In this document: positions 16,372 through 23,935 of the stretch, one piece after another
Numbering within the stretch: the stretch's first letter is position 1
How the letters are laid out: each line of letters begins with the position of its first letter
NCBI RefSeq assembly: GCF_003334815.1
Contig: NZ_QOWO01000016.1
DNA: 64,000 bases
Direction: 5' to 3' (one strand)
Origin: Escherichia coli
GTDB taxonomy: Bacteria > Pseudomonadota > Gammaproteobacteria > Enterobacterales > Enterobacteriaceae
Translations under genes and position numbers: made by a program
The notes under the pieces: model-generated
Told to the model about the DNA's origin: nothing
What the model saw: the letters and a program-made list of their open reading frames with translations, nothing else
Databases searched by the model: none

Positions 16372-16815
16372 ATGAATAAAGTTAAAAGTGTTTACAGCCC
16401 GTCCGAAAATGCAATCTACAACGCAGCGCTATATGAAAGTTATATCAAGGAGGGGACATGGCCGCAGGATGGTATTGAAATCAGCGATGAGGATGCTGTC
16501 AGATTTAATGGGGGAAATAAGCCAACAGGAAAAATGCTGGGAATGGTTTCAGGGACCCTTGCATGGGTTGATGAGCCGCCGCTTTCACCAGAACAGAAAA
16601 TATCAGATGCAGAAAACATGAAAGCCACATTTCGTGCAAAAGCTGACAGTGAAATATCCTGGCGTCAGGATGCTGTTGATGCTGGTATCGCAACTGATGA
16701 AGAAACTTCAACTCTCACCCAATGGAAGAAATACCGTGTGCTGCTGATGCGTGTTGATACTTCAACAGCACCCGATATTGAATGGCCTACGCCTCCGGCA
16801 GTCCAGGCCAGATGA
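16372..16815 (+). CDS. tail fibre assembly protein (orientation currently expressed)
   Basis: 147-aa ORF right after tail fibre; C-terminal WPTPP motif shared with the opposite-strand paralogue (WPGLP). Confidence 0.8.
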   Translation: MNKVKSVYSPSENAIYNAALYESYIKEGTWPQDGIEISDEDAVRFNGGNKPTGKMLGMVSGTLAWVDEPPLSPEQKISDAENMKATFRAKADSEISWRQDAVDAGIATDEETSTLTQWKKYRVLLMRVDTSTAPDIEWPTPPAVQAR

Positions 16816-17389
16816 CGTCCGGCGCTGTGCTGGTATCTGTTGCCGTCACCGCGTCAATGTAATCCAGCACGGCGTTAAGTCGGGTTGTTTCTGCCGGCGT
16901 CAACTTCCGTCCGGCCTGTAATTTCAACTGAATCAGACTGATGGAAGCCATTGCAGCATCAATCAGATACTGGCGCTGTGCTTCTGCCGCTTCTACTGCG
17001 GCGCTATGCTGTGCCTCAGTATCCGTCACCCATTTCTCACCATCCCATTTATCGTATGGCGTTAATGGGGCGATAGTGGTTGTATTATCAGGGTAATCAC
17101 CCGGAGCTGTGATTTCTTTGGCGTCTCCCGTTTCGGTGCTATAGACAATTTCACCACGATGGTCTGACACATATTCCCATGATTTTAAATCCATAGAACG
17201 GCAGATAGCATAACCCGCCTTATATGTGCCAGGTTCATCCAGACAGGAATATGCAGGGATACCGACACCAATGGCAAGATATTCATTTGAAGTAGAAATA
17301 TATTCCCGAGTTTTACCATCATAGTTATAGACGGTAATATTCCCCGCCTTCGTGGCAATAAGCTCGCTATTTAATACGGCGTTATCCAT
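16787..17389 (-). CDS. tail fibre assembly protein (alternative, inverted orientation)
   Basis: 200-aa ORF on opposite strand inside the invertible segment, convergent with the + strand assembly gene. Confidence 0.8.
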   Translation of the reverse strand: MDNAVLNSELIATKAGNITVYNYDGKTREYISTSNEYLAIGVGIPAYSCLDEPGTYKAGYAICRSMDLKSWEYVSDHRGEIVYSTETGDAKEITAPGDYPDNTTTIAPLTPYDKWDGEKWVTDTEAQHSAAVEAAEAQRQYLIDAAMASISLIQLKLQAGRKLTPAETTRLNAVLDYIDAVTATDTSTAPDVIWPGLPEA

Positions 17390-17870
17390 TATGCAGCCCT
17401 CACGATATAGTTAAATGCAATATTTCGTGGACGGGTTTCACTCCCGCCAGTATTACCGATACTCCCTCGTGAATGAAGTGTCGGTGATGGGATCAGACTC
17501 CCTCCTGTATTTGTGGCATCAAGTCCCCGTCCTTGTGTGTATGTCTTTTTGAAAATCGTAGCCAGTTCCCATTCATCTTTTGTGTCGTAACCATCATTGG
17601 CAACAACAATATGGCGGTGTTTTTCCAGCATCCCTGTCTGAATGCTCAATAAAACACGTCCTGCATCAATACCGCGCCCGTCATCCCAGCCACGAATAAA
17701 CTCACCACGTAAATCAGGCAATTTATTTGTCGGATAAGCCTTTGCCAGTTCCGGGTATTCTTCAGCAGAAAAAGCCGCACCGTTGCATTTCAGCCAGCCT
17801 GTTGGCGGTGTGGCTGAAGGCCATGGAACAGGCACACCAACAGGTAATGCAGAGCCTTCTCCCAAACCAA
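17389..17870 (-). CDS. alternative tail fibre variable C-terminal segment (promoterless; expressed after inversion)
   Basis: minus-strand ORF reading from the right crossover site; translation contains VGLGE at the junction matching LGLGE of the + strand fibre. Confidence 0.7.
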
Positions 17871-17876
17871 CGTTTA
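17856..17876 (-). repeat. gix/hix-like inversion crossover site (right)
   Basis: reverse complement carries TTGGTTTGGGAGAAG, identical to 15976..15990. Confidence 0.6.
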
Positions 17877-17936
17877 TGAAAATGCAGAAATAACGAGCAA
17901 ATGGCATCATTCCTGCTTTTGTCAGGGAGATCTACT

Positions 17937-18491
17937 ATGCTTATTGGCTATGTACGTGTGTCAACAAATGACCAGAACACAGATCTACAACGTAATGCGC
18001 TGAACTGTGCAGGATGCGAGCTGATTTTTGAAGACAAGATAAGCGGTACAAAGTCCGAAAGGCCGGGACTGAAAAAACTGCTCAGGACATTATCGGCAGG
18101 TGACACTCTGGTTGTCTGGAAGCTGGATCGGCTGGGGCGTAGTATGCGGCATCTGGTCATTCTGGTTGAGGAGTTGCGCGAACGTGGCGTTAATTTTCGC
18201 AGCCTGACGGATGCTATTGATACCAGCACACCGATGGGGCGTTTTTTCTTTCATGTGATGGGTGCCCTGGCTGAAATGGAACGAGAACTGATTGTTGAAC
18301 GAACAAAAGCTGGACTGGAAGCTGCTCGCGCACAGGGACGAATTGGGGGACGTCGTCCCAAACTTACACCAGAACAATGGGCGCAGGCCGGGCGATTAAT
18401 TGCATCAGGCGTTCCTCGCCAGAAGGTGGCGATCATCTATGATGTTGGTGTATCGACACTGTATAAGAAGTTTCCGGTCGGAGATAAATGA
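17937..18491 (+). CDS. DNA invertase, serine recombinase of Gin/Pin/Hin family
   Basis: 184 aa starting MLIGYVRVSTNDQ (catalytic Ser motif); GGGAG RBS; C-terminal HTH; adjacent to invertible segment. Confidence 0.9.
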   Translation: MLIGYVRVSTNDQNTDLQRNALNCAGCELIFEDKISGTKSERPGLKKLLRTLSAGDTLVVWKLDRLGRSMRHLVILVEELRERGVNFRSLTDAIDTSTPMGRFFFHVMGALAEMERELIVERTKAGLEAARAQGRIGGRRPKLTPEQWAQAGRLIASGVPRQKVAIIYDVGVSTLYKKFPVGDK

Positions 18492-18590: not shown

Positions 18591-18849
18591 ATTTTTTGCA
18601 TGAGATGATTTGAACGCCCTAGCACCAACCGTTCATGATTGCACGCCACTGTCTCTAGAACTGCTATGAGCATGAAGCCGCTGTTCAAACTAAGAATTTA
18701 TATGGCACTAACAGAAAAAATGTTACATATATGTTGAGCTTTAACGCAACATAGACATGTTCTATAGTTTGTGTCTCACCACCAGTTGAAAAAAAACGAA
18801 AATAGATTAACAATGTTCAGAAGAAACCTTCATAATAGAAGAGGTATAA

Positions 18850-19104
18850 ATGGGTAAGATTATTCGGTGGATGCTTTTTTTTGTCGGATTATTTTCCGTT
18901 GCATATTCAATATATAAATATCAACAATCTCCGCAGAGTTTATTTTACATAATCGGTGCTATAGGAACACTTTTATCTGCTACATGTGGTTTACTTGAGA
19001 TAAAAAGCAAGAAATCGAATGGCAGTATAACTGCTGGCGACAACTCAAATATCGTTGTCATTAATGGTTCAGAAAACACATCAAAAATAAAAAATAGAGG
19101 GTGA
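18850..19104 (+). CDS. small two-helix membrane protein (84 aa), unknown family - cassette 1 gene A
   Basis: ATG with AGAGG RBS ~7 nt upstream; two hydrophobic helices (res ~5-22, ~31-50) then polar tail containing GDNSNIVVINGSENT; hand-counted GC ~30-35%. Confidence 0.6.
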   Translation: MGKIIRWMLFFVGLFSVAYSIYKYQQSPQSLFYIIGAIGTLLSATCGLLEIKSKKSNGSITAGDNSNIVVINGSENTSKIKNRG

Positions 19105-19106
19105 TT

Positions 19107-20042
19107 ATGTTTGATAAAGAGGTTAACTTAGGAGACAACTCAAACGTAGTAAAAACAGAAGGGAATAACAACACAACAATAATAAATAATTTTGATGAGA
19201 AGTTTATAGGTCACGTTGTAAGATCCATGCTTTATGAAAGTATGCCTTCCTTTCAAGAAGAAGCTAGAAAAAAGATAATTGCGTCAACTGATGAATACAT
19301 TAGAGAGCTAATATCTGAGTTAGTAATTCAAAAAACAGATGCAGATACATTAAACCAAAAACTATCAACGCCTGACGTTCAATACTCTCTTTTTGAATCA
19401 GCTAAATGTTTTGCAAAAAATCCAGAAAGAACAGCAAAATCAACTCTGTTAAATTTAGTTGTAAAAAAAATAAATGAATTGGATGGAGATCATGAAGAGC
19501 TTTCCTCTATCGATCTGGCAATAAACGTCGCTACAAAACTTAGCGTAAAGCAAATAAGGTATATATCTTTAATATACTATATTAAAGATATTGTAAAAAT
19601 ATCACAAGATAGTGCCGGCGCTTATTGCATAATAGATCCTTCAAAAGATACAACAGAAGAAGTTGACGATTTCTTTTTATTCCCAAATGATATAAAAAGG
19701 AACAAGCAGGATGTTTATGATCTTTATATCGATCTATATAACAATCAAATGGATGTTGTATTTAAAGATGAAGAGATTGGCCCAGTTGATTATAGTATGC
19801 TTATAGCATTGGGTTGTATCATTCAACCTGCATTCCCTCAGCGAACATTTGTACAAAATGTAAAGAAAAGAACAGGATTAGATTTAAACGACAGCGAACA
19901 AAAATTAAAGCTATCGACATTCATTGAGAAAATAGAAAAAGCTATAGAGATAGATTCTGTCGATTATATAGTATTAACTACGGTTGGTAGACAAATAGCT
20001 AACGCCTATATATCAACAAGAATGAGATTAGTTAACTTATAA
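19107..20042 (+). CDS. 312-aa soluble protein of unknown family - cassette 1 gene B
   Basis: ATG at 19107 with AGAGGG 6 nt upstream, 2 nt after gene A stop (ORF track start 19101 is an upstream GTG); N-terminus contains GDNSNVVKTEGNNNT; hand-counted GC ~27%; followed by hairpin terminator. Confidence 0.65.
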   Translation: MFDKEVNLGDNSNVVKTEGNNNTTIINNFDEKFIGHVVRSMLYESMPSFQEEARKKIIASTDEYIRELISELVIQKTDADTLNQKLSTPDVQYSLFESAKCFAKNPERTAKSTLLNLVVKKINELDGDHEELSSIDLAINVATKLSVKQIRYISLIYYIKDIVKISQDSAGAYCIIDPSKDTTEEVDDFFLFPNDIKRNKQDVYDLYIDLYNNQMDVVFKDEEIGPVDYSMLIALGCIIQPAFPQRTFVQNVKKRTGLDLNDSEQKLKLSTFIEKIEKAIEIDSVDYIVLTTVGRQIANAYISTRMRLVNL

Positions 20043-20063
20043 ATATCTCATATTTCTTCATCC

Positions 20064-20099
20064 AAGGTGGTGGCTTCATCATCCACCGCCTTCTTTTCT
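20064..20099 (+). terminator. rho-independent terminator of cassette 1
   Basis: AAGGTGGTGG-CTTCATCAT-CCACCGCCTT hairpin followed by CTTTTCT. Confidence 0.55.
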
Positions 20100-20103
20100 G
20101 CTC

Positions 20104-20240
20104 TTAAGAGTAGTGAACAAACCACTCGTCAGCAAACTCCCAAGTATCTTTCAGAGTCTCCTGAACAAAAGCCTTAGCAGAATCCTTATCTGCGGTGTAC
20201 GTAACAGGAAAATCATCGCTATGGTAGCTTTGACGCTCAC
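20104..20240 (-). pseudogene. truncated dinI-like remnant (3' portion only)
   Basis: nucleotide similarity to the 3' end of the intact dinI-like gene at 21881..22129 (GTGAACAAACCACTCGTCAGCA.ACTCCCA.GTATCTTTCAGAG...); no N-terminal part or start codon. Confidence 0.6.
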
Positions 20241-20366
20241 CCCCATACCATAAAATATCAAGAGATTACGACTCATTTCCCCATGACTCTTCACCAACCA
20301 ACAGTTCTATCAACATAAGATGTAAACTCATAAACTAAGCAAGATAAAAAAATTAACAGAATTTTG

Positions 20367-20395
20367 TTGATTTCATGTCTGTGGAGTGTTAACTT
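20367..20395 (+). promoter_or_regulatory. candidate sigma70 promoter for the XRE/ImmA operon
   Basis: TTGATT-17 nt-TAACTT about 50 nt upstream of the XRE start. Confidence 0.3.
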
Positions 20396-20445
20396 AAAAT
20401 GAGACCTGAAGTACTGAAGGTCTTTGACACACTGGAGAAGCAACT

Positions 20446-20805
20446 ATGTTAACGCCGTTTGGTAAGACAGTAAGAAAAATGCGCATAGACTTGGGGCTTA
20501 CGCTTAAAAGCATGGCTGAGGCTATGGGCATGACCTCGTCTTATCTTTCAGCGATCGAAACTGGTAAAAGGGCGGTCACTAAGCCCGTGCTTGATAGCAT
20601 CATTAGCTATTTTAATGCGGATGAAAAACAAAAAGAAAAGCTTATCAGTGCAGCTCGTGACTCTCAGCAGTCAGTAGAGATCAGCTTGTCAGGTAAGAAT
20701 GGCCACGCTCGTGAAGTCGCAATTGCGTTCGCTCGTAGTTTTGATGAATTAAATGAAGAAGACTTCCGTAATTTACGACAGATTTTGAATCGAAAACAGC
20801 AGTAG
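20446..20805 (+). CDS. XRE-family helix-turn-helix transcriptional regulator
   Basis: 119 aa; N-terminal HTH region (LGLTLKSMAEAMGMTSSYLSAIETGKR) typical of XRE/Cro-C1 repressors. Confidence 0.8.
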   Translation: MLTPFGKTVRKMRIDLGLTLKSMAEAMGMTSSYLSAIETGKRAVTKPVLDSIISYFNADEKQKEKLISAARDSQQSVEISLSGKNGHAREVAIAFARSFDELNEEDFRNLRQILNRKQQ

Positions 20806-20813
20806 GAGGCGGC

Positions 20814-21335
20814 TTGAGCGGACAAGATTATCGTGTACCTCCGCAGAATCGTGAATCAATACGTTCTATCGTCACATCTCTGCGGAGCGCATTTGGTATT
20901 ACTGGGCTTAAATTCCCTGTAATGGAGGTAATTGAGTTCGCATTGCCTCAGTTGATCCCGGATTTTGAGTTCCACATTGGTGGCATGAAAGAAATGGGAG
21001 AAACGCATGGTCTTACGTACCCACAGGAACATTTATTGATTCTGCGCGAAGACATTTACGAAGGCGCTTTGAATGGGGTAGGGCGAGATAGGATGACTGC
21101 CGCGCATGAATTGGGTCATCTTCTTATGCACAGGAACATCGCATTTGCTCGTTCTGCCCCAGGGGTAAAAATCCGCCCTTTTGAGAGTAGTGAATGGCAA
21201 GCTAAATGTTTTAGTGGTGAGTTATTAGTGCCGGCTATGCATGTCAGTATTTTAAAAGGTATGACGGCTGAGGATGTTGCTAAGGCATGCGGAGTTTCAT
21301 TAGTGGCAGCGCGTTATCAGCTAGACAGAATGTAA
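20814..21335 (+). CDS. ImmA/IrrE-family zinc metallopeptidase
   Basis: 173 aa; TTG start 4 nt after TAGGAGG; HEXXH motif (AAHELGHLLMH); immediately downstream of XRE gene, the classic HTH-peptidase pair. Confidence 0.8.
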   Translation: MSGQDYRVPPQNRESIRSIVTSLRSAFGITGLKFPVMEVIEFALPQLIPDFEFHIGGMKEMGETHGLTYPQEHLLILREDIYEGALNGVGRDRMTAAHELGHLLMHRNIAFARSAPGVKIRPFESSEWQAKCFSGELLVPAMHVSILKGMTAEDVAKACGVSLVAARYQLDRM

Positions 21336-21880: not shown

Positions 21881-22129
21881 TTAGTGAACAAACCACTCGT
21901 CAGCAGACTCCCAGGTATCTTTCAGAGTTTCCTGAACAAAAGTTTTAGCTGAATCTTTATCGGCGGTGCGCGTAACAGAAAGGCCATCGTTGCTGGTGGC
22001 TTTTACGATCACCTCTACATCGTCATAACGCTTACTGATGCGTCGAGTTAATTCTTCCTTTAACGCATCCACAGCACCGTTTGGCATTTTAGTCATTTTC
22101 TCTTTAGCTATGCAGATCTCAATACGCAT
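21881..22129 (-). CDS. DinI-family protein (prophage-encoded)
   Basis: 82 aa [11 protein letters not shown]...[11 protein letters not shown], resembles DinI; two LexA boxes in its upstream region. Confidence 0.85.
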
Positions 22130-22213: not shown

Positions 22214-22329
22214 TGTACAAATGTTCTTTGGCTACAAATACACCTACTGATCATGTTCTGCTATGCTCTGATACCTCCAAAATGTACAATCAGCGGCATG
22301 AATTTTTCTTTGTACATATGATTGTACAT
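22214..22329. repeat. cluster of four TGTACA motifs incl. two TTCTTTG-N0-2-TACA(A/T) direct repeats upstream of prfC
   Basis: TGTACA at 22214, 22283, 22311, 22324. Confidence 0.4.
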
Positions 22330-22348
22330 AATTAAAGAGACAACAATT

Positions 22349-23935
22349 ATGACAAGCCTTTTGGCCGCAGAGGTAGCGAAAAGAAGAACCTTTGCAATTA
22401 TTTCTCACCCGGACGCCGGTAAAACTACCATCACCGAGAAGGTGCTGCTGTTCGGACAGGCCATTCAGACCGCCGGTACAGTAAAAGGCCGTGGCTCTAA
22501 CCAGCACGCTAAGTCGGACTGGATGGAGATGGAAAAGCAGCGTGGGATCTCCATTACCACGTCTGTGATGCAGTTTCCGTATCACGACTGCCTGGTTAAC
22601 CTGCTCGACACCCCGGGGCACGAAGACTTCTCGGAAGATACCTATCGTACCCTGACGGCGGTGGACTGCTGCCTGATGGTTATCGACGCTGCAAAAGGTG
22701 TTGAAGATCGTACCCGCAAGCTGATGGAAGTTACCCGTCTGCGCGACACGCCGATCCTCACCTTTATGAACAAACTTGACCGTGATATCCGCGACCCGAT
22801 GGAGCTGCTCGATGAAGTTGAGAACGAGCTGAAAATCGGCTGTGCACCGATCACCTGGCCGATTGGCTGCGGCAAGCTGTTTAAAGGCGTTTACCACCTT
22901 TATAAAGATGAAACCTATCTCTATCAGAGCGGTAAAGGCCACACCATTCAGGAAGTCCGCATTGTTAAAGGGCTGAATAACCCGGATCTCGACGCTGCGG
23001 TTGGTGAAGATCTGGCGCAGCAGCTGCGTGATGAACTGGAGCTGGTGAAAGGCGCGTCTAACGAGTTCGACAAAGAATTGTTCCTTGCGGGCGAAATCAC
23101 TCCGGTATTCTTCGGTACTGCGCTGGGTAACTTCGGCGTTGATCATATGCTGGATGGCCTGGTGGAGTGGGCACCTGCGCCGATGCCGCGTCAGACTGAT
23201 ACCCGTACTGTAGAAGCGAGCGAAGACAAATTTACCGGCTTCGTATTTAAAATTCAGGCCAACATGGACCCGAAACACCGTGACCGCGTGGCGTTTATGC
23301 GCGTGGTATCCGGTAAATATGAAAAAGGCATGAAGCTGCGCCAGGTGCGCACTGCGAAAGATGTGGTGATCTCCGACGCGCTGACCTTTATGGCGGGCGA
23401 CCGTTCGCACGTTGAAGAAGCGTATCCGGGCGATATCCTCGGCCTGCATAACCACGGCACTATTCAGATCGGCGACACCTTTACCCAGGGTGAGATGATG
23501 AAGTTCACTGGTATTCCGAACTTCGCGCCGGAACTGTTCCGTCGTATCCGCCTGAAAGATCCGCTGAAGCAAAAACAGCTGCTCAAAGGGCTGGTACAGC
23601 TTTCCGAAGAGGGCGCGGTGCAGGTGTTCCGTCCGATCTCCAACAACGACCTGATCGTTGGTGCAGTTGGTGTGCTGCAGTTTGATGTGGTGGTATCGCG
23701 CCTGAAGAGCGAATACAACGTTGAAGCAGTGTATGAGTCAGTCAACGTTGCCACTGCCCGCTGGGTAGAATGTGCGGACGCGAAGAAATTCGAAGAGTTC
23801 AAGCGTAAGAACGAAAGCCAACTGGCGCTTGATGGCGGCGATAACCTCGCTTACATCGCTACCAGCATGGTAAACCTGCGCCTGGCGCAGGAACGTTATC
23901 CGGACGTTCAGTTCCACCAGACCCGCGAGCATTAA
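22349..23935 (+). CDS. prfC: peptide chain release factor 3
   Basis: 528 aa from ATG 22349 ([27 protein letters not shown]...); GTPase motifs; ORF track start 22322 is an upstream in-frame ATG. Confidence 0.95.

Follow-up and report, generated by a model that had tools for sequence, protein, structure and literature searches.

The closest described system is PD-T2-1, an anti-phage operon of the Escherichia coli strain ECOR03 (bioRxiv 10.1101/2025.07.02.662641; PMC12236752), which consists of PD-T2-1A (WP_075861856.1) and PD-T2-1B (WP_087894771.1, an accession number that was printed in that paper with one digit missing). [quoted passage not shown] It is triggered by tail-fiber proteins: transposon insertions that hit it alleviate T7 gp17 toxicity, and PD-T2-1 is also toxic in combination with T2 gp37, gp34, and gp12, each of them a trimeric β-helix fiber protein (PMC12236752). 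Its authors described sequence analysis as “largely uninformative,” predicted one transmembrane segment in A, found no interaction between A and B (AF3 ipTM of 0.5 or less), and gave no mechanism (PMC12236752).

The gene pair analyzed here lies within a 64-kb stretch of E. coli DNA, hereafter the window. Judged by its sequence, this pair is the PD-T2-1 system of ECOR03: the window translations of A and B match the RefSeq proteins WP_075861856.1 and WP_087894771.1, respectively, with 100% identity, and the locus is the same two-gene operon, in which A codes for a membrane protein and B for an unannotated one, with no sequence difference. The gene pair and its role in defense are already known. 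What appears to be new in the literature searched is the pairing of a short motif between the two proteins, the spread of this pairing over the whole protein family, and the mechanistic hypothesis that we derive from it. The motif is mentioned neither in the PD-T2-1 paper nor elsewhere in the literature searched; that paper is also silent on the family-wide pairing and on the membership of B in the LPO_1073/Vpar_1526 family, all of which come from the present analysis.

The best explanation of the whole, to which we assign a probability of roughly 55%, is that PD-T2-1 is carried as cargo at a prophage end near prfC and that matched β-prone “zipper” motifs couple B to A.

The gene pair and its surroundings

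[quoted passage not shown] The tail is probably cytoplasmic, because K/R residues flank the N-terminus and come after the second transmembrane segment (TM2). No family match for A was found in NCBIfam, PADLOC, PHROGs, or profile searches.

Table 1. Features of the PD-T2-1 locus in the window
Feature	Position	Strand	Description
Promoter-like site TTAACA-18-CATAAT	18807..18836	+	14 nt upstream of gene A; 10/12 matches, weak
Gene A (PD-T2-1A)	18850..19104	+	84 aa, small inner-membrane protein, proposed effector
Motif copy 1	19036..19089	+	A residues 63-80, GDNSNIVVINGSENTSKI, C-terminal tail
A-B junction	19090..19109	+	End of A, TGA at 19102-19104, GAGGG Shine-Dalgarno-like sequence, ATG of B at 19107 (2-nt gap)
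Gene B (PD-T2-1B)	19107..20042	+	311 aa, LPO_1073/Vpar_1526 family, proposed cytoplasmic sensor
Motif copy 2	19131..19184	+	B residues 9-26, GDNSNVVKTEGNNNTTII, N-terminus before folded domain
Folded body of B	19197..20021	+	Helical N-domain (31-161), alpha/beta C-domain (164-305)
Intrinsic-terminator-like hairpin	20064..20099	+	10-bp stem, hairpin at 20064-20092, then U-rich tract; closes the two-gene operon

Protein B was initially taken to have 312 residues; its actual length is 311 aa when counted from the ATG at 19107, as in RefSeq, or 313 aa from a GTG at 19101. It scores 85.9 bits (E = 3.3e-24) against the NCBIfam profile NF045477 (LPO_1073/Vpar_1526), for which the cutoff is 45 bits, and is a member of this family. 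That is its only match in NCBIfam, PADLOC, and Pfam-A, with no NTPase, TPR, or PIN family found. The Pfam entry PF28206 is on record for all close homologs of B, and neither B nor 64 of its relatives had a match in the Pfam-A library searched. PADLOC returned nothing for either window protein, its PDC-S47 profile giving a weak match to the N-terminus of distant B relatives only, and PHROGs yielded nothing useful. Sequence and profile searches of the PDB with B were empty as well, and the predicted fold of B has no PDB match. The AF2 model of B has a pLDDT of 85.9, with residues 1 to 22 below 50.

The layout of the A-B junction suggests translational coupling of the two genes. Promoter-like sites are no commoner in this region than in shuffled sequences. 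The terminator-like hairpin has a folding energy of -15.3 kcal/mol (z = -4.8 versus shuffles); it was missed by a pattern scan because its loop is 9 nt long. The pair sits in an island of 31% GC at the end of a prophage whose tail module is Mu-like, with the Pin-type invertase of this prophage on one side and dinI and prfC at a greater distance on the other. Just 4 of 5,426 complete E. coli genomes carry it, all at the same place. A CapH/CapP-like gene pair lies directly downstream in the window; none of the other E. coli loci identified has it.

A motif shared by partner proteins

The first-pass annotation had pointed to an approximately 18-residue motif common to the tail of A and the N-terminus of B, and to a DNA repeat about 80 nt apart across the gene boundary; both observations hold. 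The motif is 18 to 21 residues long, and the ungapped alignment of A residues 60 to 80 (ITAGDNSNIVVINGSENTSKI, nt 19027-19089) with B residues 6 to 26 (VNLGDNSNVVKTEGNNNTTII, nt 19122-19184) contains 10 identities in 21 positions. When the A tail is compared with the B head under BLOSUM62, the highest ungapped score is 60, a value reached in 0 of 3,000 composition-preserving shuffles (mean, 23.4; standard deviation, 4.6; maximum, 49). At the DNA level, the 15-mer GGMGACAACTCAAAY is present in exactly two copies in the 64-kb window (19036-19050 and 19131-19145), where none would be expected by chance. These copies are direct, not inverted, and start 95 nt apart, leaving a gap of 80 nt. At the 10 identical residues, 6 codons are identical, as compared to 4.4 expected from codon usage. 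Since this codon identity is no higher than codon usage predicts, the DNA repeat is a by-product of the peptide match and no signal in its own right.

An exhaustive phmmer search yielded 89 representatives of the B family, nearly all of them 260 to 350 aa long, with a G/N/S/Q-rich start whose consensus is close to KQxQxVGDNSxAIQAGGNVxI. The motif is found at the start of most LPO_1073/Vpar_1526 proteins. A PSSM built from the A tails alone has a significant best match in 48 of 84 B representatives, and in 45 of these 48 the match falls within the first 40 residues. In all loci with upstream DNA to inspect, except for those named below (20 distinct loci in total), a protein of 60 to 106 aa with one or two transmembrane segments abuts B or is fused to it, and its tail, following a K/R cluster, repeats the motif variant of its own B. 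The two-gene layout is seen in 18 loci, and the distance from the stop codon of A to the start of B ranges from -23 to +14 nt. Besides the window, the 20 loci include metagenomic ones in which B is 34 to 53% identical to the window protein (L002, L005, L006, L008, L010, L011, and L013) and the distant loci L014 and L015, with B about 20% identical. They also include eight genomes or metagenome-assembled genomes (MAGs) of Salinimonas, Motilimonas, Aliivibrio, Jezberella, Methylocystaceae, Rhodoferax, a deltaproteobacterium, and Burkholderiaceae, as well as L024, found in an E. coli P2-like prophage or phage-plasmid, and L028, which belongs to a further clade. The loci thus span Enterobacterales through Burkholderiales and include a deltaproteobacterial MAG as well as a phage-like contig. 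Alignment of the homologs therefore shows the motif to be conserved independently in A and in B in all 20 loci, down to B identities of about 20%, and the notion of a chance match between low-complexity segments is not borne out, as the motif is present in the homologs.

There are two kinds of exceptions to the paired arrangement. In L012, the N-terminus of B has been replaced (this is a truncated copy) and there is no A; L027 carries an HNH fusion, and the 143 nt of upstream sequence available contain no A gene. A profile search of genome contigs with the alignment of the close subfamily gave no match, nor did a tblastn search of a phage collection with B and P0102; among viral contigs, only one near-identical locus was found. 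As with the window pair at its prophage end, the surroundings of some relatives fit a role in defense: one is located in the variable cargo region adjoining the portal gene of a P2-like phage, and another one adjoins a phage lysis cassette.

Homologs in which A and B form a single open reading frame, which the first-pass annotation had proposed to look for, do exist. On a short metagenomic contig (L006), A and B are in one frame, and in P0011 and P0099 both motif copies occur in one chain; P0037 and P0050 combine a transmembrane segment, the motif, and the domain in a single chain. Other N-terminal additions were seen as well: a transmembrane segment precedes a complete Vpar_1526 domain in P0037, P0050, P0059, and P0099, and an HNH nuclease is fused to the N-terminus of a complete Vpar_1526 domain in P0047 and P0074 (PADLOC E values of 1e-24 to 1e-30). 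This HNH type is the effector type of CBASS and Shedu. The HNH fusions retain a copy of the motif, which argues that the motif is not simply an adaptor that is replaced by a fused effector. It looks more like an assembly element that belongs to the B module, and it could serve B for self-assembly in general.

The motif variants of A and B match by pair. Among 17 pairs, motif identity is 7.8/18 for cognate partners, as compared to 5.0 for non-cognate ones, 5.5 for A with A, and 5.6 for B with B. When partners were permuted, the observed value was reached in 0 of 100,000 permutations overall, with p = 0.011 for the window clade and p = 1e-5 for the wider clade, counts that are inflated by kinship and correspond to about five clearly independent co-changes. 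“QAGRD” is found in both partners of L019 and L020, “TINSGRDT” together with the same one-residue deletion in both partners of L013, “NVVQV.GS” in both partners of L021, and “QKG.NN.QIG” in both partners of L028. At the same time, the A-side and B-side motifs each have a conserved flavor of their own. Identical codons at identical A/B residues number 47 in 17 loci, versus 54.5 expected (z = -1.4), and nucleotide identity over the motif is 23 to 34 of 54 positions in all loci, synonymous positions being free. As shared synonymous codons are not in excess, the match is maintained by selection on the peptides and not by exchange of DNA or a recent duplication. In our judgment, the motif is very likely a selected, co-evolving element that couples A to B. 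Of the interpretations originally offered, a shared interaction or strand-exchange peptide is therefore the one that we favor, with the motif conserved in both partners in 20 loci and covarying pairwise.

Possible mechanism and competing explanations

Bacterial amyloid signaling sequences (BASS) are β-prone motifs of about 20 to 25 residues in which N, G, Q, V, and I are overrepresented and P, L, and K underrepresented. The motif described here is enriched in N (4.1-fold), G (2.3-fold), I (1.8-fold), Q (1.3-fold), and V (1.3-fold), as well as in S and T, contains no P or F, and is depleted in L (0.22-fold) and K (0.74-fold). Strands and glycines follow each other in the order strand, G, strand, G-G/N, strand; I/V residues alternate, and Asn residues are conserved. 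In composition, length, and β-propensity, it resembles the BASS/FASS class. As in that class, the motif copies are found at the C-terminus of the putative effector and the N-terminus of the putative receptor encoded by adjacent genes, both in the window and in 19 further loci, and the permutation tests show cognate motifs to be closer to each other than non-cognate ones. The receptors and effectors are of other types: B is neither an NLR with NB-ARC or NACHT and repeats nor a TGP such as Agp, and A has no Bell/HeLo-like or known immune effector domain.

Comparison with a published sample of BASS1 to BASS10 sequences (PMC8086366, supplementary file 2) revealed order-dependent similarity to BASS1, BASS6, and BASS9, with a mean z of about 2.5 and an overall range of 2 to 8. 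The similarity of the L019 and L020 variants to BASS1 is strong (z = 6 to 8); that of the window variant to the BASS sets is weak (z = 2.6 to 3.3), and no single BASS family fits. AF2 predicts both motif copies, in A and in B, to be flexible, with short strands. In an AF2 model of concatenated A and B (12-row paired alignment), residues 50 to 112 have pLDDT values below 50 and form four short strands, with no confident pairing of the motifs. As both motifs are below 50 and unpaired, this model is uninformative on the A-B contact. Mimicry by the trigger, that is, a tail fiber that itself carries the motif, was considered and failed for T7 gp17: with the PSSM of the window clade, searched against 31 T7 proteins, the best score of gp17 was 1.4 (z = 0.18), and nothing resembling the motif was seen.

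These features could be combined in the following scheme. One copy of the zipper, of about 20 residues, would be located on the cytoplasmic tail of A and the other on the flexible N-terminus of cytoplasmic B. B would be the sensor, as suggested by its relatives with an N-terminal HNH nuclease or transmembrane segment: because these modules are fused N-terminally to the Vpar_1526 domain, B is likely a sensor or regulator whose N-terminal side serves as output. We infer from the same architectures that signaling runs from B to A. Tail-fiber proteins produced during infection, the trigger reported in PMC12236752, would activate B directly or indirectly, and the N-terminal motifs of activated B may then gather into an ordered β, amyloid-like nucleus. 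As the pair-specific co-evolution suggests, this nucleus would recruit or template the matching A tails. By analogy with Bab/Agp and HET-S/NWD2, the A hairpins would then cluster, damage the inner membrane, and abort the infection; since the motif tails are only about 10 residues from TM2, the hairpins might be forced into membrane-damaging arrays. That the coupling between A and B is amyloid-type templating, and not plain docking, we propose only tentatively, with the chances falling just short of even.

An extension of this scheme, which we put forward with still less assurance, is that Vpar_1526 proteins and their small membrane partners represent a large unrecognized class of amyloid-signaling-type immune pairs in unicellular bacteria and phages. 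In such a class, a non-NLR sensor would polymerize via a BASS-like N-terminal motif and thereby cluster either minimal transmembrane effectors in trans or transmembrane segments and HNH nucleases in cis. The folding of trimeric β-helix tail fibers would thus be read out by templated β-assembly.

The alternative that survives best, although we consider it unlikely, is plain docking, in which a stoichiometric β-strand zipper tethers B to A permanently at the membrane, with neither templating nor polymerization, and activation takes place elsewhere, e.g., through a conformational change in B that is transmitted to A. Pair-specific covariation and tight operon coupling would suit any direct interface equally well, and the fused A-B chains P0011 and P0099 are what one would expect of constitutive partners. 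However, no heterodimer interface was predicted with confidence by AF2 in this work or by AF3 (PMC12236752). The motif is also of the BASS type, both in its N/G-rich composition without P and in its strand-G-strand-GG-strand layout, and the HNH fusions retain it although their effector is covalently attached, so that a mere tether would be superfluous.

Independent self-assembly, in which the motif would serve homo-oligomerization only (for example, as a trimeric β-helix cap) and the likeness between A and B would reflect common descent, appears improbable. It predicts no excess of similarity between cognate partners, whereas none of the 100,000 permutations matched the observed pairing and cognate A-B motifs are closer to each other than either A to A or B to B. 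The retention of the motif in HNH-fused and stand-alone members, as well as the lack of an A gene in the 143 nt upstream in L027, would nevertheless fit this explanation.

We see very little room for the proposal that a recent duplication, gene split, or pseudogene formation left behind a motif without function, even though A and B share one frame in L006 and the 15-mer is repeated in the DNA. Both open reading frames are intact, occur in identical form in several E. coli genomes, and are experimentally active (PMC12236752), so the single gene disrupted by a frameshift that had been considered for this locus can be set aside; the two-gene layout recurs in 18 loci. A frameshift fusion of A and B was also rejected, as the A AAA AAT run close to the end of gene A is followed immediately by a TAG in the -1 frame. 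Gene conversion or recent duplication was rejected on the codon counts (47 versus 54.5 expected). The earlier suggestion that a short duplication created or split the gene pair thus fails as a recent event, both on these counts and because each side of the motif has its own flavor; as an ancient event, fission or duplication is a plausible origin of the motif pair, because chains combining a transmembrane segment, the motif, and the domain (P0037 and P0050) and chains with two motif copies (P0011 and P0099) exist. Hardly any weight can be given to a nucleic-acid element, in which the 15-mer, found twice where none is expected by chance, would act in regulation, translational coupling, or recombination, given that its copies are direct, the motif is only 23 to 34/54 identical at the nucleotide level, and conservation is confined to the amino acid level.

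For PD-T2-1, a validated system with an unexplained mechanism, the motif pair offers a hypothesis that can be tested by mutation, with named residues. If the amyloid-like reading is true, amyloid signaling would extend beyond NLR/TGP sensors and Bell effectors to a different sensor family and minimal membrane effectors; besides multicellular bacteria, it would take in Enterobacteria, Burkholderiales, other bacteria, and phages. There would also be an explanation for the conserved N-terminus found throughout an NCBIfam/Pfam family without assigned function, and PD-T2-1 would be the first experimentally tractable member of the class. If only docking is true, the A-B interface would still be defined, along with a matching-variant rule for spotting cognate partners.

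Comparison with known systems

Apart from PD-T2-1 itself, several defense and signaling systems resemble the A/B pair in some respects. Abi-alpha (DUF4393; Pfam ID PF14337), encoded in prophage 6 of Enterococcus faecalis, is a prophage-borne abortive-infection protein of similar size that causes premature lysis and acts as a single gene. Structural neighbors of B identified with Foldseek include models annotated as DUF4393 (E = 7e-9, TM about 0.6). As neither B nor any of 64 relatives matches PF14337 in Pfam-A, this likeness is at the fold level only.

The BASS1 to BASS10 Bell-NLR pairs (Dyrka et al. 2020) and the fungal HET-S/NWD2 pair follow the same gene-pair logic as A/B, with the same motif position, length, and composition bias. 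In BASS1 to BASS10, as in the A/B pairs measured here, cognate partners are closer than non-cognate ones, and the “QAGRD” variants of L019 and L020 resemble the BASS1 core. Unlike the receptors of the BASS and HET-S systems, B lacks repeats as well as an NTPase of the NB-ARC or NACHT kind, and unlike the Bell effectors of BASS pairs, the A-type effectors are minimal proteins with one or two transmembrane segments. The hosts differ as well: A/B pairs come from unicellular Proteobacteria, phages, and others, whereas BASS1 to BASS10 come from multicellular Actinobacteria and Cyanobacteria. As both the receptor and the effector are of a different type and the amyloid behavior is putative, we do not file the A/B pair as a member of a BASS family.

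A further parallel is with Bab/Agp (BASS11) of E. coli ECOR25 (bioRxiv 10.1101/2024.11.07.622273). The effectors are unlike: Bab, a soluble helical domain related to Bell, has to move to the membrane, in which A, as a transmembrane hairpin, already resides. At the positions of the Bab residues reported as essential (D2, G11, Y14, and D15), A has, by inspection only, G2, F11, L14, and F15. The architectures are much alike. Both are pairs of adjacent genes in a prophage defense locus, with a motif of about 23 residues in Bab/Agp at the C-terminus of a small effector and a matching motif at the N-terminus of the sensor, and both motifs, BASS11 being compared by its description, carry a conserved D-N and several glycines.

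Membrane topology and variants of protein A

A single transmembrane (TM) domain was predicted in protein A, the membrane component of the two-gene anti-phage system PD-T2-1, in the paper on that system (10.1101/2025.07.02.662641; PMC12236752). In the protein encoded here, hydropathy and the AF2 model (positions 18850-19002) point to two helices, at residues 2-26 and 31-52, that make up a hairpin. Such a hairpin would put both termini of A, including the C-terminal tail with the motif that is also found at the N-terminus of protein B, in the cytoplasm.

The A proteins of three other loci with B homologues (L015, L021, and L022) are of a single-TM type and have in common a conserved N-terminal segment, xW(V/I)FSGIGV, which suggests a distinct and recurrent effector module with the same tail motif. 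At L015, whose B protein is a distant relative, the A/B pair (2146-3974) is followed directly, on a phage-like contig, by phage lysis genes for a holin and an amidase endolysin.

Fused and motif-less B homologues

The metagenomic homologue P0011 (L006, 76-1290) is a 404-aa protein whose one reading frame spans both A and B, with both copies of the motif retained. As its sole source is one 1.6-kb contig, this fusion may be an assembly error. In P0047 and P0074 (L027, 144-1547), a defense-type HNH nuclease is fused N-terminally to the full Vpar_1526 domain, the family domain of B, with a copy of the motif kept between the two. No A-like gene was seen in the 143 nt inspected upstream of this fusion gene, which is followed by two unannotated genes.

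At L012 (879-1846), unrelated sequence takes the place of the N-terminal motif of B and no A gene was found upstream; this copy has probably decayed or been rearranged. The match on a Pantoea vagans plasmid (H6) likewise begins at residue 30.

Prophage setting and the downstream gene pair

Features flanking PD-T2-1 in the window
Feature	Position	Strand	Remark
Tail-fiber/tail-fiber-assembly gene	16372-16815	+	
Tail-fiber/tail-fiber-assembly genes	16787-17389 and 17389-17910	-	
Pin/Gin-type serine invertase	17901-18491		adjoins opposed tail-fiber genes
HTH protein (119 aa) and ImmA/IrrE-type metallopeptidase (173 aa)	20446-21335	+	directly 3' of PD-T2-1
DinI-like gene	21881-22129	-	prophage end marker
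prfC	22322-23935	+	after DinI-like gene

The invertase and the DinI-marked end of the prophage bracket the low-GC cargo (18600-20400, ~31% GC). Immediately 5' of it, with convergent tail-fiber and tail-fiber-assembly genes on opposite strands, the segment 15687-18491 looks like an invertible host-range segment. In an E. coli P2-like element (L024), three unannotated genes (227, 359, and 333 aa; 1690-4440, minus strand), located near the portal gene, separate dinI from the A/B pair and are possibly another defense cargo.

The HTH protein and the metallopeptidase are similar to the CBASS regulators CapH and CapP (PADLOC; E = 3.6e-10 and 4.9e-11, respectively). This pair is missing from the remaining E. 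coli PD-T2-1 loci (L001) and adjoins dinI in 9 genomes where PD-T2-1 is absent; therefore, the CapH/CapP-like pair is a module separate from PD-T2-1 that occupies the same variable spot.
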